From contig JABHIW010000149.1 in assembly GCA_018670825.1 (NCBI GenBank), positions 3,894 to 67,893 of the forward strand: a stretch of DNA of 64,000 nucleotides, in the 5' to 3' direction. The DNA is from Candidatus Scalindua sp. (GTDB lineage: Bacteria > Planctomycetota > Brocadiia > Brocadiales > Scalinduaceae). The notes below the pieces were generated by a model. It made no database searches. It saw only the letters and a list, made by a program, of their open reading frames with translations, and was not told the origin of the DNA. Of the stretch, positions 6,189 through 44,512 are shown piece after piece (the stretch's first letter is position 1; each line of letters opens with the position of its first letter). The position numbers and the translations under genes were made by a program.

Positions 6189-6600
6189 AAAAACACCTTA
6201 GCTTATTTATTCAAAAATTTTATATGGTTTTTTCTACTCTCTGGATAGGTAATTGAAAAAACGGAACGGGATTATAGATGAAAAGAATACAAAAGGCAAG
6301 TGCCAACGGAAATGTACAGAGTCAGGCTGGTGAGTGGCACAAGGCTATACCCCATTTAGGGTAAGAACAGAAATTAATAAACAATTCTCTCTAAGATGCC
6401 TTTGCTCATAAGATACGTATTGACACAAAGATATTGTCTGGGTAGTTTACATGTAGGTGGATATAAGACTCTGTCTTTCAGTATCTCGGTATCAGGGAAA
6501 GAAAAGAGATGATGGTTAATACGGTAATCCTGATAGTGTCTATTCTGTCTGTATCAAAAGCAAATTTTAATAAACTTGAATAAGTTTGGAGTCAACTAAA

Positions 6601-7758
6601 ATGGCAAAGATTGAGTTTTTTACTTCAGAAAGCGTGACAGAAGGCCATCCTGATAAAATCTGTGATCAGATAAGCGATGCAATATTAGACGCTTTGTTGA
6701 AACAGGACAAAAACGCAAGGTGTGCCGCAGAGTGTTTGACAACAACAGGGCTCGTAATAGTTGCGGGAGAGATTTCAACAACAGGTTATGTTGAAATCCA
6801 GGATATTGTGAGAAACACCCTCAAAGAGATTGGATACACGAACCCTGAATTCGGTATCGATTGTGATGATGCCGGTGTGATGGTGAGTGTTCATGGCCAG
6901 AGTCGGGATATTGCGCTGGGAGTTGATGAAGGAGACGGGCGGGAACAGGGCGCCGGTGATCAGGGTATGATGTACGGATTTGCAACCAATGAAACTGATG
7001 AGCTTATGCCGTTACCGATAATAATAGCGCATAAGCTGGCAATGCGTCTTGCATATGTAAGAAAAGAGGGGATTTTAAAAGACCTTGGTCCTGATGGAAA
7101 GAGTCAGGTCTCCGTGGAATACCATGACGGAAAGCCTGTCAGATTAAGTACTGTTGTCATCGCCCAGCAGCATATTGACGGGACTTCGGAAGAAGAATTA
7201 AGAAAGGGGATTATTGAGCAGGTCATCAGGCCCGTTTGCGGTAATTTGCTGGATGATAAGACTAAGATTTACGTAAATGCTACGGGAAAGTTTGTAATAG
7301 GTGGCCCCGAGGGCGATACCGGTCTGACTGGCAGGAAAATAATTGTAGATACCTACGGCGGCCTGGGCAGACATGGTGGAGGCGCTTTTTCCGGAAAAGA
7401 TCCGAGCAAGGTTGACAGGTCCGGCGCGTACGCGGCAAGATGGATTGCAAAGAACATCGTTGCGGCCGGGCTGGCTGATAAGTGTGAAGTGCAGGTAAGC
7501 TATGCAATTGGTATTCCCGAACCGACATCCATAAATGTCGATACTTCAGGTACAAACAAGATACCGGAAGAGAAGATTGTGGAGCTTGTCAAAAAGAATT
7601 TTAGTCTCAATCCTCGCGAAATTATCAAAAGACTTGACCTGTTAAGGCCTATCTACAAAAAGACTGCAGCTTATGGTCACTTCGGGAGAAACGATCCGGA
7701 CTTCACATGGGAAAAGACGGATATGGCAGATACGCTCAGGAAAGAAGCTGGGATGTGA
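6601..7758 (+). CDS. metK: S-adenosylmethionine synthetase
   Basis: [51 protein letters not shown] 6601 preferred over the track TTG 6586. Confidence 0.95.
7714..7758 (+). repeat. direct repeat copy 1 (authentic metK 3-prime end)
   Basis: aagacggatatggcagatacgctcaggaaagaagctgggatgtga recurs at 8588-8634 with a few substitutions or indels. Confidence 0.8.
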
Positions 7759-7963: not shown

Positions 7964-8251
7964 TTATGCAGGTATGACCTTTTTTACCTTGATCCGTGAT
8001 GACCTCTTTTCCGCTTGTGCAAGATCATAGCCCATCTGTAAACCTAACCATACCTCTGGGGTGCTGCCGAAAGCTTTGGACAACCTGATAGCCATTTCCG
8101 GTGAAACACCGTTTTTACCATTTACAAGGTTGCTGAGAGTAAGGCGAGTTACACCAAGAATTTCAGCAGCCTTGGTTATGCTCAAATCTAATGGTTCCAG
8201 ACATTCGCACTTGATGATTCTTCCAGGGTGTGGAGGGTTCTTCATTTTCAT
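7964..8251 (-). CDS. higA: HigA-type antitoxin (XRE-family HTH)
   Basis: [66 protein letters not shown] is the canonical HigA/VapI pattern. Confidence 0.85.
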
Positions 8252-8260
8252 ATTGTTCTC

Positions 8261-8540
8261 CTAATGGTAGTCAATTAAATCAACGTCGTATACGTCACCG
8301 TTCTTGATCATGAAGACCACTCGCCAGTTTGCCCGTAGGGTGACTGACCAGAAACCTTTCATACTGCCCTTGAGGGGGGTGCAGGAGAAATCCAGGTAGA
8401 CCCATATCCTCAGGTTTTTTGGCATGGTTAAGAACGGCAAGTATATGTTCAAGCTTCTGTACATCTTGAGCGGAGACCTTACTGCGGTCAGCCTTTTCAA
8501 AAAGACGTTGCAGCCCTTTATGTCTGAAGCTCTCTATCAT
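8261..8540 (-). pseudogene. higB: HigB-type (RelE/ParE superfamily) toxin gene, frameshifted in a G6/C6 run
   Basis: N-terminal part MIESFRHKGLQRLF...DMGLPGFLLHP (track ORF 8295-8540) and C-terminal part LKGSMKGFWSVTLRANWRVVFMIKNGDVYDVDLIDYH (track ORF 8261-8500) lie in different frames. They join if the G6 run at 8374-8379 were G5. Confidence 0.75.
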
Positions 8541-9452: not shown

Positions 9453-10073
9453 ATGGCAAATAGAGAAGAAAGTGGACAGGGAATCCCACAATCATCCGAT
9501 CAGGTCAAGCAGGAAATGGATTTAGTTCAAAAAAGTATGCAGAATGCAAGGGAACAGTTCAGTGCGATACAGCTATCCGCACAACTACAGATCCAGGAAG
9601 AGGTTAAAAAGGCCGCAGCCCAGATAAAGAAATCACAGCAATTTATTTCCGAAAATGTGAAAATTTTGCAGCAAAATTCCAGTTCTATACAAGGAAAAGA
9701 CTTGCCTGCATATGACAACATGAAAGCGGCAACAGAAAAATCATCTTCTGGAATCTTGAATGAACTGCAAAGCACAGCGGCATCCATAAGAGCCGCCATG
9801 GAAGCAGCAAATGCTGCGACCAAGGACATAGAAAATAATGAAGAGGCTATAATGAAAGCAATGATGGAAGCAGAGTCCGTTTTGGCAGATCAGGTACCTA
9901 AGGCAGCAGCTCCTGCACCGCCTCAAGTAGCCGGGTTGCCTCCCATACCTGTGCAACAACCTGCAGTACAACCAGATGAAACTCCGCAAACGGAAGGTAA
10001 GTCGGCTTGGATGATTGGCATGGAAGAAGCGGATAAGGCTCAAATGGAGATTGATAATCTGTTGAGAGATTGA
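9453..10073 (+). CDS. hypothetical Q/A/S-rich helical protein with a proline-rich C-terminal segment
   Basis: 206-aa ORF with a strong SD (taaggagg, 8 nt upstream). Low-complexity sequence, PAPAPPQVAGLPPIPVQQPAVQP. No signal peptide seen. Confidence 0.6.
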   Translation: MANREESGQGIPQSSDQVKQEMDLVQKSMQNAREQFSAIQLSAQLQIQEEVKKAAAQIKKSQQFISENVKILQQNSSSIQGKDLPAYDNMKAATEKSSSGILNELQSTAASIRAAMEAANAATKDIENNEEAIMKAMMEAESVLADQVPKAAAPAPPQVAGLPPIPVQQPAVQPDETPQTEGKSAWMIGMEEADKAQMEIDNLLRD

Positions 10074-10979: not shown

Positions 10980-12077
10980 ATGACAAGCGATAAAACTAAA
11001 AACATAGTTGCATATGATTTCTTTTGCGGTTGCGGAGGAACAAGCAGGGGGTTTCAGAACGCCGGTATAGATATTGCTTTTGCGCTGGATATAGATCCGG
11101 ATGCTAAGAACACCTTTACCCAAAACTTTCCCGAGACCATTTTTTGCAACAAAAGCATCACAAAGCTCACACCTTCTGACTTGCAACCAACGCTAGATAA
11201 ATATAAAGATAGTTACAAACTATTCTGCGGTTGTGCTCCTTGCCAGCCGTTTACCAAGCAAAATACGGAAAGCCCTAAGCGGGAGACACGTAAAAACTTA
11301 CTTTCTAAATTTGGACGAGTTATAGAGAGGCACCGACCCGATTTTGTTTTTGTTGAAAATGTTCCAGGGTTACAAAAGGTTCCCACATATAAGCGAGGGC
11401 CACTCCCCGAGTTTGAAGCATTACTGGGGAGACTTGATTACCATATTACGTATGGAATTGTTGCTGCCCAAGGTTATGGCGCTCCACAGCTACGCCGTCG
11501 TTTTGTTTTATTGGCAAGCAGACATGGTGAAATAAATATTCCCTTGCCCACTCATGGCAAAGATCATGGCGCCCCATACAAAACTGTTCGTGATGCGATT
11601 GTTGACCTTCCGGCCATTGCTGCTGGAGAGATATACAAAGAGCCTAAAGTACTAAACCACCGCGCCGCTAAATTATCAGAGTTGAATAGGAGAAGGATTA
11701 AATCATCTGATCATGACGGAGGAGGGCGCAACAACTGGCCCAAATATCTCGTACCCGGGTGTTACACACGGACTAATGAACATGGTGAAACTCATTCAGG
11801 GCATACTGACTGTTACGGCCGTCTATGGTGGGATAAGCCGGCAACGGGACTAACAACTCGCTGCATCAGTTATTCCAACGGAAGATTCGGACATCCGGAA
11901 CAAGATAGGGCCATAAGCGTTAGGGAAGCTGCGCGTCTCCAGGGTTTTGATGACGATTTTGAATTCACAGGGAATCTAAACTCCATGGCAAAGCAAATCG
12001 GCAACGCCGTTCCGGTCGATTTGGCACACGCAATGGGAAGTCACTTCATAAAACATATCGAGGCAATCAATGGCTAA
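10980..12077 (+). CDS. dcm: DNA (cytosine-5)-methyltransferase
   Basis: C5-MTase motifs in order: DFFCGCGG (I), CAPCQPFT (IV), FVFVENVPGL (VI), QLRRRFVLL (VIII), GNAVPV (X). Confidence 0.9.
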   Translation: MTSDKTKNIVAYDFFCGCGGTSRGFQNAGIDIAFALDIDPDAKNTFTQNFPETIFCNKSITKLTPSDLQPTLDKYKDSYKLFCGCAPCQPFTKQNTESPKRETRKNLLSKFGRVIERHRPDFVFVENVPGLQKVPTYKRGPLPEFEALLGRLDYHITYGIVAAQGYGAPQLRRRFVLLASRHGEINIPLPTHGKDHGAPYKTVRDAIVDLPAIAAGEIYKEPKVLNHRAAKLSELNRRRIKSSDHDGGGRNNWPKYLVPGCYTRTNEHGETHSGHTDCYGRLWWDKPATGLTTRCISYSNGRFGHPEQDRAISVREAARLQGFDDDFEFTGNLNSMAKQIGNAVPVDLAHAMGSHFIKHIEAING

Positions 12078-13308
12078 TTTCAAAGTACATGCCAGAGTTC
12101 TGGATCTCTTGGGGTCTGAGCAAATTGCCGATATGCCGACCGCAGTAAGCGAACTTTTCAAGAATGCATACGATGCCTATGCCGATAACGTGTCACTTGA
12201 GTTGTTTAGGCACAATCAGCATGCGATCCTTTGGGATGACGGCGTTGGGATGTCGCTTGATGACGTAGAGAATCGTTGGTTGGTCGTCGGAACACCAAGC
12301 AAGAAGTTGTCGCCGCCGACTGTGCGAGAGGGATATGAGAGTCGGCCGGTAATGGGTGAAAAGGGAATCGGCAGGTTAGCGGTTTCTACACTCGGCGACA
12401 CACTCCTTTTAATATCGAAGAAGAATTGTAGGCAGCCGGATTGCTTCACCGCTTTGTTTTTTAGCTGGAAGATCGTCCGTAACCACAAACTGATGCTTGG
12501 CGAATTTGAGGTTCCGGTGTTGCCATTTAGCTCACTTGATGATTTCACTGCTGACATATTCGGAATGCTGGTAGATGAATTTAGGCGCCAACTTGACGTT
12601 ACTTTTGAACGCGGGAAATGGGAAGGCTATGAGGATCTTCTGGCTCAGATCAGAAGCGAGGTGGATTCTTTCGATCCAGACCTGACCCTATTCCACCGCA
12701 CCGGAGCCTTCACTGGGGAGAGTGGCACAGCCTTCTATCTCGGAAACATGACTGATGAGGTGCAATGCCTGACAAAACTGAAAGATAGATTCGACACCAC
12801 TGATAAGAATGTCTACGACCAGACTGTTCTTTTACTCAGCAACTTTAGTATATCGCGAATAGTTTCTTCGGACGTTGCCCCTACATTAAAGTCAATAGAC
12901 GCTTTCTTCACGGATGTGCGTATTTGGGACGAAAAGTTGGTTGCTCCTAGTAGCATTTTCGAGGACAAGGTCCTTTTTCAACCAGATGATTTTGAAAAAT
13001 ATGACCATTACTTTGATATTCATTTTGACAAAGATGGTCGCTATTCAGGTGAGGCTTTTCGATATGGTGAGCACCTGGGCCTTCCAAAACCGGAACAACA
13101 ACCAGTCATTCGTGGATTGAAATGCGGGCCATTTGATTTTCGCTTTTGGTACTGGCAAGGTGAACCCAAGAACACTTTGCTTGATAATGATTCGAGGTTT
13201 CGAATCAATGAAAAGCTGATGTATTCGGGTGGAATAATGATCTATCGAGATGGGCTACGAGTACTACCCTATGGGATACCTGAAAACGACTGGTTAAATA
13301 TTGAGTAA
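12070..13308 (+). CDS. GHKL (MORC/MutL/Hsp90-type, HATPase_c_3-like) ATPase module
   Basis: Bergerat-fold motifs ELFKNAYDA (N box), DDGVGM (G1), GEKGIGRLA (G2). The ATG overlaps the dcm stop by 8 nt (ATGGCTAA). Ends at TAA 13306-13308, but the frame continues into the next ORF. Confidence 0.75.
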   Translation: MANFKVHARVLDLLGSEQIADMPTAVSELFKNAYDAYADNVSLELFRHNQHAILWDDGVGMSLDDVENRWLVVGTPSKKLSPPTVREGYESRPVMGEKGIGRLAVSTLGDTLLLISKKNCRQPDCFTALFFSWKIVRNHKLMLGEFEVPVLPFSSLDDFTADIFGMLVDEFRRQLDVTFERGKWEGYEDLLAQIRSEVDSFDPDLTLFHRTGAFTGESGTAFYLGNMTDEVQCLTKLKDRFDTTDKNVYDQTVLLLSNFSISRIVSSDVAPTLKSIDAFFTDVRIWDEKLVAPSSIFEDKVLFQPDDFEKYDHYFDIHFDKDGRYSGEAFRYGEHLGLPKPEQQPVIRGLKCGPFDFRFWYWQGEPKNTLLDNDSRFRINEKLMYSGGIMIYRDGLRVLPYGIPENDWLNIE

Positions 13309-13353
13309 AGGCGCAGTAAAGGCGCAGGCTTCTACCACTTCAGCTATCGCCGG

Positions 13354-15036
13354 ATGTTTGGCTATATTTCCATCGATGTAAAAAATAATCCTACCTTGAA
13401 AGACAAGGCTGGGCGAGAAGGGATGATTAAGAACGGAGCATACCGCGACCTCCGATCAACGTTAGAGACATTTCTTAAGCAGATCTCAACTCAATATTTC
13501 TATAAAAACCAAGAATTCCGGGCACAACAGGGTCAGATCCAAGTAGCAAGCAAAACATTGAAAGACCACAAGAAGGCTCTCACTGCGAGAAGAAATGATC
13601 TTCTTGAAGAACTCAATAAGTCGTTTTCCAATATCGAACCGCAACGATCCCGACTTATCACACTTAGAGATGAAGTTGTGCAAAATCTTAGTAACTCCGA
13701 CCTTTCGATCGAAGAATTAGAAGAAATAGTAAGTTCGTTTGAAAAGCGGGTGCAGCAACTACTGGGTGAATCAAAGGTTACAATTTCCAAAAACTTATCT
13801 CTCGGTCGAGGGCGTGAACTCAATCAGGTCGCTTTTGACTACCAGGGGGCCTACATGGCCTTGCGGGAGGACGCAGAATCAGCTCGCGAAGCGATCATGA
13901 CAAAAGTGGAAAAGGATTGCCCCTCCATTGAGAAACGCTTGGCGAGAAGAAAGCTATTAGAGAATATGTTGGCATCAGGGAAAATGCGTGTAGGTAAGGA
14001 ATTTTCGAAATTGAACAGTCTTATTGAGAAGCAAACTTCTTCCATTGCTTCCCAAATTGAGAAAATCAAGACTCATGCTTTGGCTCATGTTGAGTCATCA
14101 TTGCTCCAGGCCACAAAAACAACCTCCATTGAAGATGCGATTGGCTCTGAGGTAAATATTGAAGATGCCATTAAACTCACAATTGAGGCTGCGGATTCAG
14201 GAGAGAGTCAATGCTTGGAATTGCAGGAACGGCTTTCACATGTTTTTGGAAGTGCCCTCTCTGAAGATAATGCTCTGGTCATGTCTGTTCAGGATGACCG
14301 CATCGAGGAACTTGAGAAAAAGATTCAAGAGACCATTGAGTTGGCTCAGATTGGTCTATCGGTTGAGATGATCCAGCATGATCTCCACAATATGTATCGA
14401 GGGATTTCTGGTTCGATCCGCACCCTGAGACACATGTTCACCAAAATTCCGGAAGCAATGACTCACGTGAATTCCCTACAGACTTTATTTCAGCATCTTG
14501 AACTCCGATACCGGCAACTGGAACCCCTCTATCGTGCGAGCTATCGATCCAAGAAGCAGATCTCTGGGAAAAGCATCTTGCATTTCGTGAGACAATTCCT
14601 TGCTCATGATCTGGAGGTCGCAGGTGTGTCTTTAGAGGCTTCAGAGAAATTTCTCGAATTTCGTGTTCTGGAGGCTCCTTCGCTGATTCATCCTTCATTT
14701 GTTAATCTCGTCGATAATGCAATCTACTGGCTTCGTTCTGTTAATAGACGGGTAATACGATTCGACATTGTCAACGACGTAATTGTTGTGAATGATAGCG
14801 GCACAGGAATACATAAAACGATGCTGGAGAGAATTTTTGAAGCCTTTACTACAACTAAGCAAAATGGACGAGGGTTGGGGCTATACATTGCGCGACAGAG
14901 TTTGTCGTTAGCAAATCACGAGATCTGGGCCACTAATGATTCTGCCTATAAAGTGGAACCGGGAGCCTGTTTCTGCCTGAAGTTTAGTGAGAAAGCACGC
15001 AACCATAGAAATGAGGATGACGATGATACAAAGTAG
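13354..15036 (+). CDS. coiled-coil plus histidine-kinase-like module (DHp H-box and HATPase_c), same frame as 12070-13308
   Basis: H-box-like SVEMIQHDLHNMY. CA-domain boxes LVDNAIYW (N), NDSGTGI (G1), FTTTK (F), GRGLGLYIA (G2). The frame is open from 13309, so the ATG at 13354 is only a nominal start. Confidence 0.7.
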   Translation: MFGYISIDVKNNPTLKDKAGREGMIKNGAYRDLRSTLETFLKQISTQYFYKNQEFRAQQGQIQVASKTLKDHKKALTARRNDLLEELNKSFSNIEPQRSRLITLRDEVVQNLSNSDLSIEELEEIVSSFEKRVQQLLGESKVTISKNLSLGRGRELNQVAFDYQGAYMALREDAESAREAIMTKVEKDCPSIEKRLARRKLLENMLASGKMRVGKEFSKLNSLIEKQTSSIASQIEKIKTHALAHVESSLLQATKTTSIEDAIGSEVNIEDAIKLTIEAADSGESQCLELQERLSHVFGSALSEDNALVMSVQDDRIEELEKKIQETIELAQIGLSVEMIQHDLHNMYRGISGSIRTLRHMFTKIPEAMTHVNSLQTLFQHLELRYRQLEPLYRASYRSKKQISGKSILHFVRQFLAHDLEVAGVSLEASEKFLEFRVLEAPSLIHPSFVNLVDNAIYWLRSVNRRVIRFDIVNDVIVVNDSGTGIHKTMLERIFEAFTTTKQNGRGLGLYIARQSLSLANHEIWATNDSAYKVEPGACFCLKFSEKARNHRNEDDDDTK

Positions 15037-16684
15037 CTATAGTATGATTGCCGACAAAACGATCAGGAACTTCATTAAGGCCGTTGTACTCATTGATGAC
15101 CATTGGGCGGAGGCTCAGAATGCACCAGTTTTTGAGGATGTCGACCCCGCCCAACTCAATCTTGATTCGCAGTCGATACCGCCACAAGATGATGTTGATT
15201 CGGTCATTACACCCGGAGACGAAGAGAATTCCACCGTCTCGATGAGTTCGGCTGATCCAACCTACTTGCGAGAAATTGGAAAAGAAATCACAAAACAAGG
15301 ATTTCTTTTTACTGGTCTTGCTTATACAGATGCCCTCAAGGAAATCGCAATCAAGCTTGCATCAAAATCGGATATTTTGATCCTTGATTGGCTATTGGGA
15401 ACAGAAAGTCCTGAGCCAGCACTAGAACTGTTGACAAAGCTGAAGGATTCAGGCTCCCCACGTTTCGTCTTTATCCTCACAGATCAAACTGAATTGGATC
15501 GTGTCCGTGCGCAAATCAGCGAGAGGCTTTGCGAAGAAGCGGAGGGAGCAGCTCTCGTTTTCAGTTGCGGACCTTTTTCTTTTTCGTTGAAGAACAAGCC
15601 TCAGGCTGGCGGAAGCAATACTGTTCAGGCAGAAGCAATACTCGAAGAGGCAATTTTTGGCATTCGCGCACGGTTTGGAGGACTTCTCCAATTGGCTGCG
15701 CTTGAATTGTTGGGACAATATCGTGACTGTCTGCATGAAGTCCTTGATCACTTTCATGCGGATATGGATTTTCCCTTTATTCTGGAGTGGCTTGAGAAAG
15801 AAAGTCCAATCCGAGATAGTCACTCTTTCAATGCTCTCGCAATTGATGAGTGGACAGCAAGGGTCACTCGTCGCTTTCCAGCATCGGTAGCACAAACAAT
15901 AAAAGATGAGACAGTGTCTGCACTTCTTATAGAGTGGAATGAAACAATGACTTGCCCTGAAAATTTAGAGGAAAAGATGAAGGAGCTGTTCGCCGTTAAA
16001 GGCAAAGCATTTCCCAGCGATGAACAAAAAGTCACTGAATTAATGGAGAGTCTCGGAGAATGGTTGGCTTTATCGAATTCTTGTTGGCCAGGCAATTTGG
16101 AAGGTTCAAGTAATAGTACTCCATGGGGTAAATATGCGATACGTCTTTTGGCCATGAACTATTTAAGCATAAGGAAAGGCGTATCATCACCTATTGGAAC
16201 ATTGACAGTTTTGGATGCTCTTTTTCAATGCCATGCAAATTTGCCATCAAAGCTTCAGCAAGGAACGGTGCTAATGACCCCCGACGGTAACTATCTGATA
16301 TGTATAACACCTGCTTGTGACTGCAGTCGTCCTGCTCGAATAAGATATTGTTATGTTTTTCTTGAATCTAAAAAAATAGATATCTCAACGTTAAAGGATC
16401 ACCTAGAGGGTGCAGTTGTGGCGATCCGGACAAAAGAAGAGGACAGCATATTGCTGGCTGTAACCCCTAAACCAACATTTACCTATAAAATAGCCAATCC
16501 ATCACTTGAAAGCGACTTGCAAGTTTCTGTTACTTATGGCTCGGAGGATACCTTTGTTATCAAACCCATCGCACAGCTTCGACCTGCTCGCGTTCAGTCT
16601 CTGATTTCTTTGGCTGCGGGAAAAGCAATAGAGGTTGGTTTAGACAGATCAGAACTTCTTCGACAGCTCTGCAAACCAAACTGA
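15023..16684 (+). CDS. receiver (REC)-like domain protein with an uncharacterised C-terminal domain
   Basis: REC signature residues in order: VVLIDD, DILILDWLL, FVFILTDQ, LKNKP. The remaining ~350 aa show no motif I recognise. ATG 15023 has GAGGA 5 nt upstream and overlaps the upstream stop. The track ORF starts at GTG 14987. Confidence 0.65.
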   Translation: MIQSSYSMIADKTIRNFIKAVVLIDDHWAEAQNAPVFEDVDPAQLNLDSQSIPPQDDVDSVITPGDEENSTVSMSSADPTYLREIGKEITKQGFLFTGLAYTDALKEIAIKLASKSDILILDWLLGTESPEPALELLTKLKDSGSPRFVFILTDQTELDRVRAQISERLCEEAEGAALVFSCGPFSFSLKNKPQAGGSNTVQAEAILEEAIFGIRARFGGLLQLAALELLGQYRDCLHEVLDHFHADMDFPFILEWLEKESPIRDSHSFNALAIDEWTARVTRRFPASVAQTIKDETVSALLIEWNETMTCPENLEEKMKELFAVKGKAFPSDEQKVTELMESLGEWLALSNSCWPGNLEGSSNSTPWGKYAIRLLAMNYLSIRKGVSSPIGTLTVLDALFQCHANLPSKLQQGTVLMTPDGNYLICITPACDCSRPARIRYCYVFLESKKIDISTLKDHLEGAVVAIRTKEEDSILLAVTPKPTFTYKIANPSLESDLQVSVTYGSEDTFVIKPIAQLRPARVQSLISLAAGKAIEVGLDRSELLRQLCKPN

Positions 16685-16719
16685 ATCGGGGGGGCTACGC
16701 CTTAAAGCAAAGTGAAACA

Positions 16720-17478
16720 ATGCCTAGAAACTGGACAGCTCACGAACTTCTGATTGCGATGAATCTCTACTGCCGGCTCCCGTTTGGGCAGTTTGATCAG
16801 TCGAATAGGCATATTCGCGAAGTTGCCGAGAAGATGGATCGTACTCCCAGTTCTCTGTCGATGAAACTCTGTAATCTGGCATCACTCGATTCCTATCACC
16901 AAGACCGTGGTGTCGTCGGCCTAAAAGGTGCCAGCAATCTTGATCGAAAAGTTTGGGCCGACTTTCAGCAGGACTGGTCAGTAATGGCGGAGAAGAGTGA
17001 AGCTGCATTCGAAGTCTTGATGGGTGGAATAGGTTCGAAAGAACCTGCTTCAGAAGTTGAACAACCGAGCGGGCCCTCGGAGGCTGAGCGGATGGTAAAA
17101 ACTCGGCGTTTGCAAACATTTTTCCGAAATGCCATTTTGGCAAGTTACGAAAGTCGTTGCGCGCTTACGGGGATGGCAATTCCCCAACTATTAGTCGCTA
17201 GCCATATTATCCCGTGGAGCAAAAACGAGGAGCGTCGCGCCGACCCTACCAACGGCCTATGCCTGAATGTTCTCCACGACAAAGCATTTGATCGTCACTT
17301 GATTACGTTTGACGAAAATTACAGGTTGGTGGTTTCCAGTATCTTAAAGAAAGGCGACATTTCCGAATTCCAATCGTCAAACTTTGCCAAACTCGAAGGC
17401 ACGGCGATAGCACTCCCTCACCGTTTCGCACCGGATTCCAAAGCATTAGAAGAACACCGCAATGCCTTTGTTGCTTAA
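16720..17478 (+). CDS. HNH endonuclease (HNH_2 / COG3183-like)
   Basis: N-terminus MPRNWTAHELLIAMNLYCRLPFGQ... and C-terminal ASHIIPWS...DPTNGLCLNVLHDKAFDRHLITFD, the HNH_2 pattern. Confidence 0.85.
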   Translation: MPRNWTAHELLIAMNLYCRLPFGQFDQSNRHIREVAEKMDRTPSSLSMKLCNLASLDSYHQDRGVVGLKGASNLDRKVWADFQQDWSVMAEKSEAAFEVLMGGIGSKEPASEVEQPSGPSEAERMVKTRRLQTFFRNAILASYESRCALTGMAIPQLLVASHIIPWSKNEERRADPTNGLCLNVLHDKAFDRHLITFDENYRLVVSSILKKGDISEFQSSNFAKLEGTAIALPHRFAPDSKALEEHRNAFVA

Positions 17479-17570
17479 CAAGCCTTGCACTTTGCAAATA
17501 GAGCGGAAGTTCAAGGAAACAGACAAATAATATTTCTACGGCATTGGGAGAAACGAAAGCAATAATAATC

Positions 17571-18032
17571 ATGACTGACTTTATGACTTCCAAGCAACGC
17601 AGCCAAGCAATGTCCAAAGTCCGCGGATATAACACAAAACCGGAAAAGCGTATCCGTTCTCATTTGCATAGTCGGGGCTTCCGATTCAGAATTAATAGTC
17701 CAAATCTTCCGGGGAAGCCGGATATTGTGCTAAAAAAACATAATGCCATAATATTTGTTCACGGTTGTTTCTGGCATAATCATAAAGGATGTAAAAAGTC
17801 TAAACTACCCGGCACACGAAATGAATTCTGGAAAAATAAAATTGAGGGGACTGTTATGCGGGATCAAAGAAATATATCTGATCTCACTAAACAAGGATGG
17901 CGAATAGCGGTAGTCTGGGAATGTGGAACCAAAAAACAGGATGATTTGGGAAATATCATAAAAAAACTATCGAAATGGATAATTGAAGGGAAATCAAAGC
18001 GAATTGAACTGTCTGTTCAGAAGGCATTCTAA
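17571..18032 (+). CDS. vsr: very short patch repair endonuclease
   Basis: MTSKQRSQAMSKVRGYNTKPEKRIRSHLHSRGFRFRIN...LPGKPDIVLKKHNAIIFVHGCFWH...W is the canonical Vsr pattern. Start is ATG 17571 or 17583. Confidence 0.9.
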   Translation: MTDFMTSKQRSQAMSKVRGYNTKPEKRIRSHLHSRGFRFRINSPNLPGKPDIVLKKHNAIIFVHGCFWHNHKGCKKSKLPGTRNEFWKNKIEGTVMRDQRNISDLTKQGWRIAVVWECGTKKQDDLGNIIKKLSKWIIEGKSKRIELSVQKAF

Positions 18033-19298: not shown

Positions 19299-20285
19299 TT
19301 ATACAAGCAGATTTAAAATAATCTTAATCATCATTTCTTTTTCCCTTGGCTTGCTTACTGCAATCATCAACGTCAGTGCAACAAGGGCGTTGTTATCAAT
19401 ACGTTGTGATCTATCCTTCCTGTATAATATGCCGTTTCTATCTAGAAAACATATAAACAAGGCTGCGGCGATTCGTTTATTGCCATCCACAAAACTGTGA
19501 TTCTTTGTAACAAAATATAACAAATGTGCAGCTTTTTCTTCAACTGTGGGATAAACATCCAGGCCGTCAAACGTTTGATAAATTGCACCCAGTGAACCTT
19601 GAAAACTCTTGTCCTTTTCTCTTCCAACAAGTGCGGAGCTCTTGAACTTTTCCCTCAACGCATCAATTATTTTACGGGCCTTTTCATATGTTAACTTGAA
19701 TTTTGAACGTTTTATACCTTTTGGTACGGAAAGCCGTTCATGGTCATAGTCATCCAGGACATCAAGTGCACGGCTGTACTGCGTGATAACTTCAATCAGG
19801 CCCTTTGCTTCGTCTGATACGCCATCAATGTGTACCACATTACTGAGAAGTTTTAAAGACTGCTTAAGCTGTTGATACTTGTGTTCAGAGGCTATTAAGC
19901 GCTTTTCATTAATCGTGTAACCGTCCACGAGGTGCTTTTTGAGCACGTTCGTCGCCCAAATCCTGAACTGCGTACCCCGTTTAGAATTAACCCGGTAACC
20001 AACAGAAATAATTGCATCCAGATTAAAATATTCTACCTGATATATTTTGCCATCCGCGGCAGTTGTTGCAGTTTTTGCAACAACTGAATTGCGGATTAAC
20101 TCTTTTCCGTTAAATATGTTACGCAAATGACGCGAAATAGCAGATTTGTCTCTTTCAAAAAGATCGGCCATCTGATTAAGGCTCAACCAGACGGTATCTT
20201 TTTCCAAAAGGACTTCTACCCGATTCCTGTAAACAAGCACCTTCCCCTTTGCCGGTGCTTTGTTCTCTTTCTTCTTGCCCGTCAT
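19299..20285 (-). CDS. RhuM-like N-terminal domain fused to a Fic/DOC domain protein
   Basis: N-terminus ...VWLSLNQMADLF...YFNLDAIISVGYRVNSKRGTQFRIWAT (RhuM family). C-terminal HSFVDGNKRIAAA (Fic/DOC HxFxDGNKR). ATG at 20285 preferred over the track start 20315. Confidence 0.8.
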   Translation of the reverse strand: MTGKKKENKAPAKGKVLVYRNRVEVLLEKDTVWLSLNQMADLFERDKSAISRHLRNIFNGKELIRNSVVAKTATTAADGKIYQVEYFNLDAIISVGYRVNSKRGTQFRIWATNVLKKHLVDGYTINEKRLIASEHKYQQLKQSLKLLSNVVHIDGVSDEAKGLIEVITQYSRALDVLDDYDHERLSVPKGIKRSKFKLTYEKARKIIDALREKFKSSALVGREKDKSFQGSLGAIYQTFDGLDVYPTVEEKAAHLLYFVTKNHSFVDGNKRIAAALFICFLDRNGILYRKDRSQRIDNNALVALTLMIAVSKPREKEMMIKIILNLLV

Positions 20286-20454
20286 ACAGCAATGTCTCCA
20301 ACTCATTAAAAACAATAATTAAATAATCAGGAACCACTCGCGAAAATAAATGCATGTGAAATCTTACTTGCGTAAACAAGTAAATTCAGTTTTTTGAGGA
20401 TATTTAAAATGTGTTAAAAATGATTTGTATCTGGTTTTTGCTGATGGTTATTAT

Positions 20455-20659: not shown

Positions 20660-20932
20660 TTAAGGGAAGATTCTATAAATATCTTTACGATGTGCTATTC
20701 GCTGGCAGATTAACAATTTTTGAGTCTTATCCATTGTAATGCCTATTCGATATCTTCCGATTCTGATTTTGTATTTGTCCGGATATCCTGTCATATGCTC
20801 AAGATATCCGAGTTCGAAGGGATCAGTTGACAATAGCTCATCAAAAACTATTTTTTCGGTGTGAGTTTGAACATCTTTGGGTAGTTTGGAGAGCTCTTTA
20901 AGGAATCGTTTGGTATACTCAACTTTCCACAT
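20660..20932 (-). CDS. RelE/ParE-family type II toxin
   Basis: 90 aa. MWKVEYTKRFLKELSKLPKDVQ...YKIRIGRYRIGITMD...LLICQRIAHRKDIYR is the classic RelE/YoeB-like pattern. Confidence 0.8.
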   Translation of the reverse strand: MWKVEYTKRFLKELSKLPKDVQTHTEKIVFDELLSTDPFELGYLEHMTGYPDKYKIRIGRYRIGITMDKTQKLLICQRIAHRKDIYRIFP

Positions 20933-20933
20933 T

Positions 20934-21128
20934 TTATTTCAAAGATTGATAATATTTCTTTGCATCCTTAACAGAAAGTTGTTCATCATGCGAGACTTCA
21001 TCTATTAATTTTGATAATCCATAATTTTCTATAATTTCTTCTAATTGCTCAAACTCCTTAATTGGAATTTGAACAGCAATTGGTTTCTGGCTTTCGTCCA
21101 ATACGATACTTTTATGGATTTTTAACAT
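20934..21128 (-). CDS. cognate antitoxin (small acidic protein)
   Basis: 64-aa ORF ending 1 nt before the toxin start. ...IPIKEFEQLEEIIENYGL... is typical of RelB/Phd-like partners. Confidence 0.6.
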   Translation of the reverse strand: MLKIHKSIVLDESQKPIAVQIPIKEFEQLEEIIENYGLSKLIDEVSHDEQLSVKDAKKYYQSLK

Positions 21129-39286: not shown

Positions 39287-42019
39287 ATGAAAGATAGAGA
39301 TTATTATATAAAAGATGGATCAAAGATTGCGATAATTGGCGGTGGACCTGCCGGGAGCTTTTTTGCATATTTTGCGTTAAAAAATGCTAAGCAAAAAGGT
39401 ATAAAAATTGACATAACTATTTTCGAGGGGAAAAACTTTTGTCAAAAAGGGCCTAGGGGTTGCAATATGTGTCCAGGGGTTATATCAGAAAAACTTTATG
39501 TAGAATTAAGGGAAAACAATCTGCTTCCACCAGAAAGGTGTGTGCAGAAAGAGGTCAAAGGTTACTATTTTCATACTCATGATGGCTGCGTAGAAGTTCA
39601 GAATCCTAACCCATCTGCAGACAAAAAAATATTAACTGTTTTTAGAGGCGATGGACCCATGTTTTCAGAAGAATCTGAAAGTAAGAGTTTTGACAACTTT
39701 CTTCTACGGCAAGTACAAAGCATGGGGGCCAGCATTAGTACTGACATTGTAAGTAATGTAATTTTACCGTCAAATAAGAAAGAACAGGTAAAAATATATT
39801 TCGGAAAGCAGGGTTCTTGGAGAATTATGAATGCAGACTTGGTGGTGGGTGCATTCGGCTTGAATACAGGTATGTTGGAAAAAACAAAGAGGCTGGGGTT
39901 TGGTTATGTTCCTCCTCGTACGGTCAGGGCATGTCAGGCGGAGATTTATGTCGGTGGAAGGAATGGAAATAAATACCAGGATAACAGGATACACGTTTTT
40001 TCATTAGGCATAAAGCCGATAACGTATGCTTCTTTTACACCAAGAGGAGACTATATAACGGTCACTCTGGTTGGCAAAAATGATTTGAATAAGGATCACT
40101 TGATAGAATTCCTTAATCACCCCGTTGTACGTCGTACTTTTCCTGAAGAAGGTTGGACTCTTCCAAAGAATTATTGTATCTGTTTCCCCAAGATAAACAT
40201 TACCCAGGCCAAACGCCTATTTGCTGATAGATTTGTTGTTATAGGCAGTGCAGGTATTTCGAGATATTATAAGCATGGTATTGAGTCTGCTTTTGTTTCC
40301 TCCAGAATAGCAGCAAACAGTGCGTTTGAATCGGGTGTCTCTGAAAGTGCATTTAGAAATGGTTATTATAAACCTGTGATGAAGCTTTTTGGGTCTGACA
40401 ATTTGTATGGAAGATTGGTTTTTGGGCTTAACGATTATATTACTTCCAGAAGGCGTATTTCAGCCGGCTACTTTTCATTCCTAAAATCAGACAAGAAATT
40501 GCCGGTGGCAAAAATGCAGTTAGAATTCATATGGAATATGTTTACAGGGAGTATACCCTTTAAGAAGTTATTTGTTAAGGTGTTTGATCCAATTTTGCAG
40601 ATCAGATTACTTCCTGTTACTGTGATAGTCTGGAATAAACAGGCGTTTGAGTCTCTTGTTGGTGGTGGGAAATTTAGACACAAAAAGATATTAAAGAGTT
40701 TGGCGAATAAAGGGCTTGGTCCTCTTGAAGATGGCCAGACAGTGGTTGTCATTGGTGGAGGCCCAGGTGGGACAAGTTGTGCAATTACCCTCAGCAGATT
40801 GGCAAAAAGGCGTAATATAAATTTGAACATAGTATTGTATGAAGGTAAAGATTTTGGAAAAGATGAACAGTTTAATCCGTGTGTAGGAGTGCTGTCTCCA
40901 CCTATAGAAGAAATATTAGAAAAAAAATTAGGAATTCCCTTTCCACATGAACTTATATTGGAAAAAATACCTGCATATTATCTGCATTCTGATAACGAAG
41001 ACATTAAGTTAGAAGGCGATGGTCAAGTCTCATGTGCGGTACATCGAATGTTATTTGATAATTACCTTTTGCATTGCGCGAAAGATGCAGGAGTAAAAGT
41101 AATACATGGTAGAGTGACAAATATTGATATCGAGCGAAGTGGCGCAATGGTTTACAGTGAAAAGGATAATAGGCGGGCGGATGTAGTCGTCGGAGCATTT
41201 GGCCTGGATGAAGGGGCTTGCAAAGTTTTCGAAACGGCAACTCATTATCGAACTGGCCGTTATATGAGTACCATTTTAACCAAGTTTTATCCGGAAAAAG
41301 AGGAAATGGAAAAGTTTGGTAACTGTATACACGCATTTCTTCCCTCGGTGAAAGGGATAGAGTTTGGTGCCATAACCCCCAAGGTCGATCATCTTGATAT
41401 TAATATTGCCGGTTCAAAGATTAATTGGCGTTGGATGGATAACTTTCTTTTAATGCCTCAGGTTACCAGGGTTTTGCCATCTAATTTTGCTATGCAGAGG
41501 CACGAATTATTTTATAGCCGGTGGCAGTTTCCGACTTCTCCGGCAAAAAATCTCTTTGGGGATAGATATGTCACTGTAGGCGATGCTGCCGGTATTATTC
41601 GTGCATTCAAGGGTAAGGGCGTGAATACTGCCTGTACAACAGGGATAAGGGCGGCAGAGGTCATGATGGATGTGGGTATCTCAAAAGAAGCATTTAAGGA
41701 TTATTATGATAGCTTTTCTGATATAACCAGCGATCTTCCTTATGGAAAAATCATTAGAATGCTTGCGGGTTTTAGTGCGCGTTGTGGGCTGTTTACCCCC
41801 ATGCTTCAATTGGCAAAGGAAGATAAGAAATTTAGAGCAGCTTTTTTCGATTCAGTTGCAGGCAGCAGGATGTTTAAAGAAATAATTTTTGAAACTATTA
41901 GCTTGCAATTGTCCTGGAAAGTTGTGAAAATTCTTATAATGTGGTTCTTTAAGCAGTTCTCTTTTATGTCATGGGTAATAAAACCCATTAGCAAGGCTAT
42001 AACTAATAAGCGAACATGA
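39287..42019 (+). CDS. tandem fusion of two GGR-like FAD-dependent oxidoreductase modules (modules 2 and 3)
   Basis: Residues 1 to ~470 parallel the 37889 product (IAIIGGGPAGSFFA, CQKGPRGCNMCPGVIS). A second fold starts at VVVIGGGPGGTSCA with NPCVGVLSPP and VGDAAG. Hydrophobic C-terminus. Confidence 0.7.
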   Translation: MKDRDYYIKDGSKIAIIGGGPAGSFFAYFALKNAKQKGIKIDITIFEGKNFCQKGPRGCNMCPGVISEKLYVELRENNLLPPERCVQKEVKGYYFHTHDGCVEVQNPNPSADKKILTVFRGDGPMFSEESESKSFDNFLLRQVQSMGASISTDIVSNVILPSNKKEQVKIYFGKQGSWRIMNADLVVGAFGLNTGMLEKTKRLGFGYVPPRTVRACQAEIYVGGRNGNKYQDNRIHVFSLGIKPITYASFTPRGDYITVTLVGKNDLNKDHLIEFLNHPVVRRTFPEEGWTLPKNYCICFPKINITQAKRLFADRFVVIGSAGISRYYKHGIESAFVSSRIAANSAFESGVSESAFRNGYYKPVMKLFGSDNLYGRLVFGLNDYITSRRRISAGYFSFLKSDKKLPVAKMQLEFIWNMFTGSIPFKKLFVKVFDPILQIRLLPVTVIVWNKQAFESLVGGGKFRHKKILKSLANKGLGPLEDGQTVVVIGGGPGGTSCAITLSRLAKRRNINLNIVLYEGKDFGKDEQFNPCVGVLSPPIEEILEKKLGIPFPHELILEKIPAYYLHSDNEDIKLEGDGQVSCAVHRMLFDNYLLHCAKDAGVKVIHGRVTNIDIERSGAMVYSEKDNRRADVVVGAFGLDEGACKVFETATHYRTGRYMSTILTKFYPEKEEMEKFGNCIHAFLPSVKGIEFGAITPKVDHLDINIAGSKINWRWMDNFLLMPQVTRVLPSNFAMQRHELFYSRWQFPTSPAKNLFGDRYVTVGDAAGIIRAFKGKGVNTACTTGIRAAEVMMDVGISKEAFKDYYDSFSDITSDLPYGKIIRMLAGFSARCGLFTPMLQLAKEDKKFRAAFFDSVAGSRMFKEIIFETISLQLSWKVVKILIMWFFKQFSFMSWVIKPISKAITNKRT

Positions 42020-42028
42020 GGGTAAAAA

Positions 42029-44512
42029 ATGGATAAAAAAGGAATTTATATTTTAGAAATATTTAAGAAAAAAGGGCCTTTATCTATAATCCTTGGACAG
42101 TTAAACTCTTCGTTGAAGGCTTTCGAAATCAAATCAATAAAAAAGAAAATGATACTTGTGTTTTTAATACTGGCACTTATTCCGTTATTGGCAATGAGGT
42201 TAGTTGTTTATCCTAAAGCACAGGATGCATTACAAACATCTTTAATACAAAATCTGCAAAGTGTCGGACACAAGCAAGCGGAACTCATTAAAGGTTGGAC
42301 AGAAGAAAGAAAGGGTGACGTAAGGGTTATTGCTGAAAATCCTTTTACGCTTCTTGCTTCCAGAGTAAACATGAACGATAAACGGTTCTGGCGTCTTTTA
42401 AGGTATACTCACTACATAAGATACGAGTATGACTATAAGGAGGTTCTTATAAGTGATGCGGAAGGTATTATTCATGTCTCTACCCAAAAGGGTAGAATCG
42501 GTGCAGATATCTCTGAATTGGAATATTTTAAAAAGGCGATGGACGGAGAAACATTTGCATCACAGATATATCCTTCAATAGAGCTTGTTGAAAATAAATA
42601 CGGCAGAATGGAAACAGGTGTTCCAACCATGGTTGTTGCGTCTCCAATTACTGATCGAAATAAAATAATGGGTGTTGCGTGTCTCAGGGTTGACGTCGAG
42701 AAAATAAGCGAATTTATGAAAAGTATAAAGTTAGGCGCAAGCGGTGAAACGTATCTTGTTAATAAACAGGGTTATATGATAACGGAGTCCCGGTTTGCAA
42801 CTGATTTAAGGAATGAGGGACTGATAGAAGGTGGAACTACTCTTGAGATTAAACTAGTCAATCCAGAGGCAGGGAAATTGACAAAATCTGTTTCGGAATG
42901 TTTGAAAGGACACACAGGTTCTGATGGAGAGGGTTATTTAGATTATCGTGGTGTAAAGGTAATTGGCTTCTGGCAATGGATCCCGGAGCTGGATTGGGGT
43001 GTAATTGCTGAGATTGATTATGACGAAGGATATATAGAAGTAAACAGACTACGTAAAAACGTTAATACAATTATGATTATCGTTTCTTTAGGAGTGGTGG
43101 TGCTTGCCGTTTTTATGGGTCAAAGGATGGTAGCTCCAATTCTTTATCTTACAGATGCAACAAGGAAAATGAATGCAGGTGATCTTACTCAAGAAGTTAA
43201 TATTCGCACCAGGGATGAAATTGGTGAACTTGCAGTCTCTTTTAACATGATGACCAGGACCTTAAAAAACAGAAATGAGGAACTTCAATCGTCAAACCTT
43301 TTTATGGAATCAATGTTTGATGCCATAAGAGATCCGATGACAGTCCTGGACAAAGATGGGACTATTAAGCAGGTCAATAGGGTTGCAATGGATACTTACG
43401 GAGAGAATATTGTCGGGGAAAAATGCTATTGCGTATATAAAGGTCGGGAATCTATTTGTGATCACTGTCCCACAATGAAGTCAATTGAAACATTATTGCC
43501 TGAGACGGCAGAGCACTATGTGGAAAGAGATAAAAAATATGTATTCATCGCCTCTTATCCTATCTTAAATAAAGAAGGAAAACTAGAATCAATAATAAAA
43601 CTGGTGAGAGACATCACTGAACAGAAAAAGCTTGAAAAAGAACTCCAGGATTATACTGCAAATCTGGAAAAGACCGTTGAGGAGAGGACAATAGATCTGA
43701 AATCAACAAATGAAGAACTGAAGCAACGAAGCGTCGAGATAGAAAGAGCCAATGAGGAATTGCGTAGCCTTGATAAGATGAAAGACGTAATGATCCGAGA
43801 TGTGACCCATGAATTAAAATCACCGGTAGCGCAGGTCCAAATGGCAATTGGTCTTTGGACTAGTGAGGCCGCTAAGGAAAAAGTAGATAAAGAGAAGGGG
43901 AAAAAATTAAGCAAAATAATTGATGATAACATACAAAGGCTAAAGAAAACTATTCAAAGTATATTGGATTTATCAGTATTAGAGTCTGGCCGTGTTGCAT
44001 ATCAAAAGGAGAATTTGAATCTGGAGGAAATAGTACACCAAACGGAAGAGGGATTAAAATTAATAGCGGAGAAGAAAGGGTTGACATTAACTATAAGAAT
44101 TCCTGACAGACTTCCGGAAGTATTTGGAGATAGAACAGAGATTACAAGGGTCGTTTCCAACCTAATAGACAATGCCATCAAATACTCTGAAACCGGAGAA
44201 ATTATAGTGTCCGCTCTGAGGAGGCCTAAGGATATAGAAATATCAGTTAAGGATCAAGGGATTGGCTTGATTACGCCTAAGGGAAGTTTTGACAAACTCT
44301 TTAGTCGGTTCTACCAGGAAAGGGCAAGTGCTGATGGTTCCGGGGTTGGTCTCGCTATCTGTAAGAAGATTATAAATGCCCATGGTGGGAAAATTTGGGT
44401 TGAAAGTGACGGAAAGGGAAAAGGCACAACATTCAAGTTTACATTACCAGTAATCTCTGATGGGGGAAAAGATCCTGATACCCTATCTTCAAATCCGGAA
44501 GAGGTAGCGTGA
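42029..44512 (+). CDS. sensor histidine kinase (periplasmic Cache-like, HAMP, PAS, HisKA, HATPase_c)
   Basis: Two TM segments flank a ~300-aa extracytoplasmic domain. HAMP (DEIGELAVSFNMM), PAS, H-box THELKSPV, and NLIDNAIKY / DQGIGL / GSGVGLAI. Confidence 0.85.
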   Translation: MDKKGIYILEIFKKKGPLSIILGQLNSSLKAFEIKSIKKKMILVFLILALIPLLAMRLVVYPKAQDALQTSLIQNLQSVGHKQAELIKGWTEERKGDVRVIAENPFTLLASRVNMNDKRFWRLLRYTHYIRYEYDYKEVLISDAEGIIHVSTQKGRIGADISELEYFKKAMDGETFASQIYPSIELVENKYGRMETGVPTMVVASPITDRNKIMGVACLRVDVEKISEFMKSIKLGASGETYLVNKQGYMITESRFATDLRNEGLIEGGTTLEIKLVNPEAGKLTKSVSECLKGHTGSDGEGYLDYRGVKVIGFWQWIPELDWGVIAEIDYDEGYIEVNRLRKNVNTIMIIVSLGVVVLAVFMGQRMVAPILYLTDATRKMNAGDLTQEVNIRTRDEIGELAVSFNMMTRTLKNRNEELQSSNLFMESMFDAIRDPMTVLDKDGTIKQVNRVAMDTYGENIVGEKCYCVYKGRESICDHCPTMKSIETLLPETAEHYVERDKKYVFIASYPILNKEGKLESIIKLVRDITEQKKLEKELQDYTANLEKTVEERTIDLKSTNEELKQRSVEIERANEELRSLDKMKDVMIRDVTHELKSPVAQVQMAIGLWTSEAAKEKVDKEKGKKLSKIIDDNIQRLKKTIQSILDLSVLESGRVAYQKENLNLEEIVHQTEEGLKLIAEKKGLTLTIRIPDRLPEVFGDRTEITRVVSNLIDNAIKYSETGEIIVSALRRPKDIEISVKDQGIGLITPKGSFDKLFSRFYQERASADGSGVGLAICKKIINAHGGKIWVESDGKGKGTTFKFTLPVISDGGKDPDTLSSNPEEVA

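Follow-up and report, generated by a model that had tools for sequence, protein, structure and literature searches.

A five-gene operon at positions 10980-18032 of the window, the 64,000-nucleotide (nt) stretch of contig JABHIW010000149.1 (assembly GCA_018670825.1, Candidatus Scalindua sp.) analysed here, encodes a Dcm-type methyltransferase, a histidine kinase, a receiver-domain protein, an HNH nuclease and a Vsr endonuclease. With a probability of roughly 0.6, the following reading holds. The locus belongs to the published restriction-modification (R-M)-linked family characterized by the HEF_HK kinase and the Response_reg_2 receiver, and is a distant relative of the anti-phage system Ambrosia. 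Its core consists of Dcm, kinase and receiver, to which HNH_2 and Vsr are attached in this clade, and its relay-driven defence is probably impaired by a premature stop codon in the kinase gene.

All five genes lie on the + strand of the open reading frame (ORF) map. Their products match DNA_methylase, HATPase_c_3, HEF_HK, HATPase_c, Response_reg_2, HNH_2 and Vsr above the curated Pfam cut-offs. The features of the operon are as follows.

10980..12077, + strand: dcm, C5 cytosine DNA methyltransferase (Dcm-type) of 365 amino acids (aa), apparently intact
12070..15036, + strand: paraMORC-GHKL/histidine-kinase gene, whole frame, with an in-frame TAA at 13306-13308
12070..13308, + strand: N-terminal part of the kinase gene, 412 codons, with the premature TAA at its end
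13306..13308, + strand: nonsense codon TAA splitting the sensor kinase (ancestral GAA, Glu), from protein and DNA comparison with homologues
13306..13327, + strand: perfect 11-nt tandem repeat, two copies of TAAAGGCGCAG, perfect partly through the G-to-T nonsense change
13309..15036, + strand: C-terminal part of the kinase gene, in the same frame as the N-terminal part: coiled-coil region, HEF_HK (dimerization and histidine phosphotransfer domain with the H-box) and HATPase_c
14371-14397, + strand: H-box IQHDLHNMY of the kinase, with QHD at 14374-14382
14704-14892, + strand: N, G1, F and G2 boxes of the HATPase_c catalytic domain
15023..16684, + strand: receiver-domain protein (Response_reg_2), 553 aa; ATG at 15023, with GTG at 14987 also a possible start
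16301-16333, + strand: CITPxCDCxRP motif of the receiver protein, invariant, in the beta-rich domain
16720..17478, + strand: HNH_2 endonuclease, 252 aa; the HNH domain occupies residues 120-250, and the first 120 residues are uncharacterised
17571..18032, + strand: Vsr very-short-patch repair endonuclease, 153 aa; ATG at 17571, alternative TTG at 17544

The genes are closely packed. The dcm stop and the kinase start overlap by 8 nt (12070-12077), and the kinase gene, which ends with TAG at 15034-15036, overlaps the receiver gene, which begins with ATG at 15023, by 14 nt. The HNH start (16720) follows the receiver stop (16684) after 35 nt. The HNH stop (17478) is separated from the vsr ATG (17571) by 92 nt, or by 65 nt from the TTG at 17544. 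Besides the one nonsense change, 0 frameshifts or stops occur across the 7 kb operon, and the methylase, receiver, HNH and Vsr genes are intact in the window copy. The operon has a guanine-plus-cytosine (GC) content of 44-47%, against 36-38% in the flanks. A scan for promoters and terminators was uninformative: promoter-like sites did not exceed the shuffled expectation. The single strand, tight junctions, coordinates and motifs given in the original prediction, which was made from the sequence alone, were all borne out by the ORF map and a recheck of the motifs.

The kinase gene encodes three domains, HATPase_c_3, HEF_HK and HATPase_c, in this order and in one frame, interrupted by the TAA at 13306-13308. 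The N-terminal part matches HATPase_c_3 (Pfam, 1.6e-13) and resembles the N-terminus of the BbrUII/HgiDII restriction enzymes (NF050001, 5e-22). Residues 138-412, the position of an S5-like domain in the paraMORC architecture, have 0 Pfam matches. The C-terminal part matches HEF_HK (PF19191; 3.2e-14, 53.6 bits against a cut-off of 24.1) and HATPase_c (Pfam, 2e-13, 51.2 bits), and resembles solved histidine kinases, FixL and HK853 among them. The motifs ELFKNAYDA, DDGVGM, GEKGIGRLA and IQHDLHNMY are present, as are the N, G1, F and G2 boxes. The 412-aa fragment of the window is collinear with residues 1-412 of intact homologues, which are single proteins of 988-990 aa. As aligned, the GHKL ATPase forms the N-terminal domain in a single kinase of 988-990 aa, split here by the nonsense mutation only. 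A second, MORC-type ATPase had been proposed to lie upstream of the kinase; the GHKL domain is present, but as the N-terminal domain of the kinase itself and not as a separate protein. The proposed His-Asp pair stands: HEF_HK, HATPase_c and Response_reg_2 all exceed their cut-offs and the phospho-acceptor residues are invariant.

This type of gene neighbourhood has already been described. HEF_HK (PF19191) and Response_reg_2 (PF19192) were defined from it by Bellieny-Rabelo, Pretorius & Moleleki (2021, Genome Biol Evol, PMC8011034) in an in silico study of the kinase/receiver pair with R-M genes. Linkage of the two families was 91.6% across 644 regions from 628 strains. The commonest kinase architecture ('group 1') is HATPase_c_3, HEF_HK and HATPase_c, whereas group 2 kinases, 34 of 222, are devoid of the N-terminal GHKL domain. 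C5 methylases are found upstream, HNH_2 is the best-represented nuclease, and Vsr lies mostly directly 3' of the receiver gene. Descent from the paraMORC ATPases that Iyer et al. described in 2008 was proposed (PMC8011034). The window locus agrees in its group 1 kinase domains, a receiver in which no further domain is known, a C5 methylase upstream, HNH_2, and Vsr downstream. Both kinase and receiver are soluble, and Deltaproteobacteria are among the listed hosts. Adjacency of kinase and receiver, which the family requires within three genes, takes the form of the 14-nt overlap. No difference in gene content was found; the window copy differs in that its kinase is split by a nonsense mutation. 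Judged by its domains and gene order, the locus is a further member of the HEF_HK/Response_reg_2 R-M-linked family published in 2021. The gene set had been put forward in the original prediction as novel, a claim that falls with the 2021 description. The match to this described system is largely gene for gene, and the 2021 description is the source of both Pfam families.

Related loci were collected in a neighbourhood survey that combined receiver homologues (33 matches, all PF19192), distant relatives from profile searches and two megaplasmid examples, all re-scored by tblastn. A peptide-pattern scan of genome contigs returned 3 loci only, as its patterns were too specific. The kinase gene lies directly 5' of the receiver gene in every related locus with enough contig, and because of this conservation the operon arrangement is not regarded as a chance juxtaposition. 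Likewise, dcm is directly 5' of the kinase gene in all loci with enough contig except L007, in which dcm is inverted and downstream. Genes for Dcm, histidine kinase and response regulator (Dcm-HK-RR) with overlapping ORFs are found at 25-79% receiver identity in L002, L003/L004, L010, L011, L012, L013 and the P0010 contig. HNH_2, in contrast, is confined to a close clade consisting of the window, L002, L003/L004, L008, L011 and the P0010 contig. An unrelated 199-aa gene occupies the HNH position in L010, and L012 and L013 are organized as Dcm-HK-RR-Vsr. Two megaplasmid loci found with the kinase query, L014 (Pseudoalteromonas) and L015 (Pantoea), carry the Dcm-HK-RR triad only; tblastn gives no receiver similarity for these two, and their third gene is annotated merely as 'response regulator receiver domain'. 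Because the triad is kept in distant relatives while HNH_2 is confined to the close clade, the conserved, translationally coupled core is, by this distribution, Dcm-HK-RR, and HNH_2 is accessory. The linkage anticipated in the original prediction holds for Dcm, kinase and receiver, and in the case of HNH_2 extends to the close clade only. The accompanying idea of a phosphorelay defence with a sensor and an effector agrees with PMC8011034 and with Ambrosia, but HNH_2 stands outside the conserved core.

Several Dcm-HK-RR loci adjoin other defence modules: L010 (6614-12187), L002 (1-3566 and 10825-12680) and the P0010 contig. The modules found beside related loci are a BREX-like pair of PglZ and an SNF2 helicase, a HEPN-SNF2 helicase with Eco29kI R-M, and type I HsdR with an SLFN/AlbA_2 ATPase.

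The Ambrosia system is the experimentally studied counterpart. It was validated as an anti-phage system in Pseudomonas aeruginosa in a 2025 preprint (bioRxiv 10.1101/2025.09.30.679545) and consists of the XRE regulator AbrR, the N6-adenine methylase AbrA, the HATPase/histidine kinase AbrB, the receiver AbrC and the HNH protein AbrD. Defence was lost on mutation of any predicted functional domain (GHKL N40A, receiver D60A, methylase, HNH). The system was induced on infection, as reported by constructs substituting for abrA or abrD, and AbrA methylation gave phage no protection. By residue count, N40 of AbrB corresponds to the Bergerat Asn in its N-terminal GHKL domain. Table S1 of the preprint annotates another protein of AbrB's family number (1964) as HEF_HK. 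The 399 residues of AbrB printed in the preprint supplement were compared by BLASTP with the intact homologue L003, from GCA_018434685.1. They are collinear with the N-terminal 450 residues of the L003 kinase (26% identity, E 2e-23), in an alignment that spans the segment of the window stop. The gene order of methylase, GHKL/histidine kinase, receiver and HNH is the same, and in both cases an R-M-like module is placed under a phosphorelay. The remaining components differ. AbrA is an N6-adenine methylase, whereas the window encodes a C5 enzyme. AbrC has 209 aa against 553 aa for the window receiver with its large extra module; only the generic receiver (REC) fold is shared, and an alignment of the two gave an hhalign probability of 0.5%, with no detectable similarity. 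AbrD belongs to the HNH/HNH_4 (PtuB-like) family and has no similarity to the HNH_2 protein of the window. Ambrosia is without Vsr, and AbrB has 747 aa against 988 aa for the window kinase frame. No XRE/C-protein regulator like AbrR adjoins the operon; the nearest helix-turn-helix (HTH) gene, 7964-8251 (- strand), belongs to a HigBA-like pair. On these comparisons, kinase and layout relate the window system to Ambrosia, but the component definitions do not make it a member.

Two further groups of systems are similar in part. The paraMORC/MORC GHKL ATPases of R-M systems, including BbrUII/HgiDII (Iyer, Abhiman & Aravind 2008, PMC2292703), have the same Bergerat-fold ATPase motifs and are associated with a cytosine methylase, HNH and Vsr. 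In those systems, nuclease or other C-terminal domains or helicase partners accompany the ATPase, whereas a complete histidine-kinase core and a receiver partner are found in the window. Detocs (DtcA/DtcB/DtcC) also defends by means of a histidine kinase and an effector with a receiver domain. The effector part is a nucleoside phosphorylase domain, and Detocs is not known to include a methylase, GHKL-MORC domain, HNH or Vsr. PADLOC-DB 2.0.0 has no family or named system for the kinase core or the receiver; the presence of Detocs models in this release is unconfirmed.

The in-frame stop at 13306, noted in the original prediction, is real. Three intact homologues encode Glu (GAA) at this position. 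In the protein alignment with L002 and L003, this Glu stands within the conserved segment LNIE-E-RRSKGAG, and DNA comparison with L011, L002 and L003 identifies the change as GAA to TAA, G to T at 13306. A metagenome contig of the Joint Genome Institute (JGI) is 100% identical to the window along 17.6 kb. The truncated 412-aa product is on record from 73 contigs, and the identical receiver protein from 72. The identical JGI contig and the 73 contigs with the fragment establish that the stop is no assembly error but a real allele, carried in all of the sampled lineage. At identities of 90% or above, proteins carry the label Desulfobacula sp. The G13306T change also turns an 11-nt quasi-repeat (13306-13327) into two perfect copies of TAAAGGCGCAG; in the nearest intact relative, L011, the pair of repeat units reads GAAAGGCGCAG TAAAAGCGCAG. 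The nonsense mutation may have been templated by the adjacent repeat unit.

Because the sensor polypeptide is cut after residue 412, the phosphorelay of the window copy is probably disabled or weakened. Downstream ATGs at 13354 and 13423 have no Shine-Dalgarno-like sequence at the usual spacing, and re-initiation downstream of the stop is possible but unsupported. Programmed read-through or recoding of the TAA was also considered. It is unsupported, as homologues simply encode Glu there. Pairwise comparison of the window with its closest intact relative, L011 (GCA_024449835.1), gives ratios of nonsynonymous to synonymous substitution rates (dN/dS) of 0.10 for dcm, 0.16 for the N-terminal part of the kinase, 0.21 for its C-terminal part and 0.35 for the receiver. 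In the same comparison, dS is uneven along 10980-16684, with values of 0.61 for dcm, 0.32 and 0.11 for the N-terminal and C-terminal kinase parts, and 0.35 for the receiver. This unevenness suggests recombination inside the operon.

The receiver protein matches Response_reg_2 (PF19192; 2.2e-15, 57.7 bits against a cut-off of 27). The motifs VVLIDD, ILILDW, FILTDQ and LKNKP are present, and among 27 homologues no variation occurs at D25, D26, D122, T153 and K190/K192. Four parts make up an AlphaFold2 model derived from 27 homologues (predicted local distance difference test score, pLDDT, 80; predicted template modelling score 0.74): a REC domain (approx. residues 1-200, in which 31-77 form a disordered insert), a helical domain (203-402), a beta-rich domain (415-519) and a long terminal helix. 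Foldseek identifies the N-terminus as a REC fold (3lte and 2b4a, template modelling score (TM) approx. 0.71). The remainder has no such counterpart. Residues 200-553 have 0 Pfam matches even at E <= 10, a sequence-profile search of the PDB with the C-terminal module found nothing below E 0.4, and Foldseek with the full model gave 0 matches to this module below 1e-3. Numerous polar residues of the module are invariant, among them C427, C432, D433, C434, R439, E462, R469, Q518, R520 and R523. A MazF fold was considered for the module and is not claimed. The best non-REC Foldseek match is weak (E 0.02, TM 0.59), a cropped model was poorer (pLDDT 58) and again gave weak MazF matches alone, and hhalign against a hand-typed MazF/Kid alignment gave a probability of 0.2%.

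The C-terminal module, of approximately 350 residues, matches 346 clusters of a representative library (50% identity). Among the best 150 of these 346 clusters, it is found at approximately residues 200-560 of proteins of 530-670 aa, behind a REC domain; shorter entries look like fragments, and no domain swapping onto other N-terminal domains was seen. The receiver query found no match at 1e-5 in the plasmid and phage collections.

The individual enzymes are readily identified. Dcm matches Pfam DNA_methylase (PF00145, 6.3e-58), TIGR00675 dcm (2.1e-43) and PADLOC MTase_II (1.2e-87), and its catalytic motifs FFCGCGG, PCQ, ENV and QIGNAVP are complete. Given the Ambrosia methylase result, a protection of self by Dcm in the type II sense is unproven. 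The HNH protein matches Pfam HNH_2 (8.8e-14) and PADLOC HNH PDLC04132 (2.8e-89), as well as the PADLOC 'Type II restriction enzyme' HNH (REase_II) model (1.6e-40). Its nearest solved structure, by the HNH domain only, is 6yex (2.7e-14), which we take to be VcaM4I, a modification-dependent enzyme. Vsr matches Pfam Vsr (5.1e-28), TIGR00632 (7.4e-41) and PADLOC Vsr (8.7e-36), and its presence is explained by the C5 methylase in the locus. Public gene calls miss or shorten vsr. In L001 (10522-11010, equivalent to 17544-18032 of the window) the JGI call is of 58 aa only, and the vsr of L008 (3874-4326) is uncalled although the tblastn match is 81% identical. Annotation-based surveys therefore undercount Vsr beside these systems.

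Domain logic and the Ambrosia results make the following mechanism the most likely one. (i) In the kinase, the MORC-like GHKL ATPase at the N-terminus would engage DNA or sense an infection-linked state. (ii) This ATPase would drive autophosphorylation of the H-box His (QHD, 14374-14382). (iii) The phosphate would pass from the kinase His to receiver Asp122. (iv) The C-terminal module of the receiver would then switch on restriction, via HNH, via its own output domain or via transcription of the operon. (v) Dcm would modify host DNA. (vi) Vsr would repair T:G mismatches arising from 5-methylcytosine deamination, limiting the mutation that this base causes.

Several points weigh against the reading of the locus as a relay-driven defence system of the published family. 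The HEF_HK/Response_reg_2 family is known from computation alone. Homology to Ambrosia is detectable in the kinase alone; methylase type, receiver, HNH family and XRE regulator differ. The effector step is a guess, given no recognizable output fold beyond the weak MazF-like resemblance. The sensor gene is broken, and the locus may be idle at present. The dN/dS values of 0.16-0.21 on both kinase halves indicate past constraint only.

Other explanations divide the roles differently. It is conceivable, if doubtful, that the minimal system consists of Dcm, the paraMORC-kinase and the receiver, with the C-terminal module of the receiver itself acting as a phosphorylation-activated effector (a toxin, or a nuclease of unrecognized fold) and HNH_2 as a clade-specific add-on. 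The output module would then be formed by the modelled helical domain and a beta-barrel with CITPxCDCxRP, weakly MazF/CcdB-like. If true, this would make the family a restriction or abortive-infection system of a new class, triggered by a phosphorelay, and not a regulated type II R-M system. The converse arrangement, a conventional type II R-M system of Dcm, HNH_2 restriction enzyme and Vsr, in which the kinase/receiver pair merely times or tunes expression like a C-protein, is unlikely. It would accommodate the match of HNH to PADLOC models that derive from type II restriction enzymes, the full set of Dcm catalytic motifs, and the tolerated loss of the kinase in the window lineage, where Dcm and HNH are still intact; transcriptional control is also favoured by the authors of both PMC8011034 and bioRxiv 10.1101/2025.09.30.679545. 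However, in L012, L013, L014 and L015 the Dcm-HK-RR genes are retained, accompanied by Vsr in some and not in others, and a separate nuclease is missing. Because these distant relatives keep the triad without a nuclease, the kinase/receiver pair would not be an accessory of an HNH-based R-M system. No DNA-binding output domain is detectable in the receiver protein, the nearest structure to the HNH domain is presumably that of a modification-dependent enzyme, and phage DNA was left unprotected by methylation in Ambrosia.

The operon could also be a decaying remnant, unused in the window lineage, with its other genes intact only through recent inactivation. As a full account this is quite improbable, and it overlaps the preferred reading of an impaired family member instead of excluding it. 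The TAA lies inside the conserved segment, the fragment from 73 contigs places it throughout the sampled lineage, and the ATGs at 13354 and 13423 are not preceded by a properly spaced Shine-Dalgarno-like sequence. Against decay, no further frameshift or stop is found in 7 kb, and dN/dS is 0.10-0.35 for all genes compared, both kinase halves included. Kinases without GHKL occur naturally (group 2, 34/222, PMC8011034), and a restarted C-terminal product could still signal. Very improbable, finally, is a role outside defence, in which a MORC-like module for epigenetics or repair would detect the state of methylation, or T:G mismatches, and pass a signal to the cell. Such a role would fit the cooperation of MutL, also a GHKL ATPase, with Vsr in Escherichia coli, the ties of MORC/paraMORC proteins to epigenetic marks (PMC2292703), the discovery of the Pectobacterium homologues through in planta induction (PMC8011034) and the Dcm-HK-RR-Vsr loci with no obvious nuclease. 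It is opposed by the contexts, which are defence islands (BREX-like PglZ/SNF2, Eco29kI R-M, type I HsdR, toxin-antitoxins, Fic), and by a patchy and mobile distribution.

In the window, the operon is assigned to a variable island because its GC content differs from that of the flanks and toxin-antitoxin and Fic genes are nearby. The island is bounded by metK (6586-7758) and housekeeping genes. A HigB/HigA-type toxin-antitoxin-like pair lies at 7964-8540 (- strand), 2.4 kb 5' of dcm, and consists of a 95-aa HTH_3 protein (7964-8251) and an 81-aa ORF (8295-8540), both on the - strand. Between this pair and dcm, a Gln/Ala/Glu-rich ORF of 206 aa, without a match in Pfam, is located at 9453-10073 (+). 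Just 3' of the operon, a RhuM-Fic/DOC fusion (19299-20315) and a ParE/RelB toxin-antitoxin pair (20660-21128) are found on the - strand. Farther downstream, positions 27000-50000 have a sustained positive GC skew (0.17-0.35) along a + strand gene run, within which + strand ORFs of 910 and 827 aa occupy 39287-44512.

The window holds a marine, Desulfobacula-like member of the family and no new category, as the association of these genes was already published. The family is widespread and links three elements: a MORC-like DNA ATPase, a His-Asp phosphorelay and a DNA methylase. The sole experimental data on such systems concern one distant relative, Ambrosia, in a preprint. The window copy is a natural experiment: the whole sampled lineage has a stop in the sensor, whereas methylase, receiver, HNH and Vsr are intact. 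Because HNH is intact across a lineage with a broken sensor, this suggests that the nuclease is either not lethal without the kinase or inactive without it. The interest of the family now lies in the uncharacterised output domain of the receiver, and in Dcm-HK-RR rather than HNH as the conserved unit.

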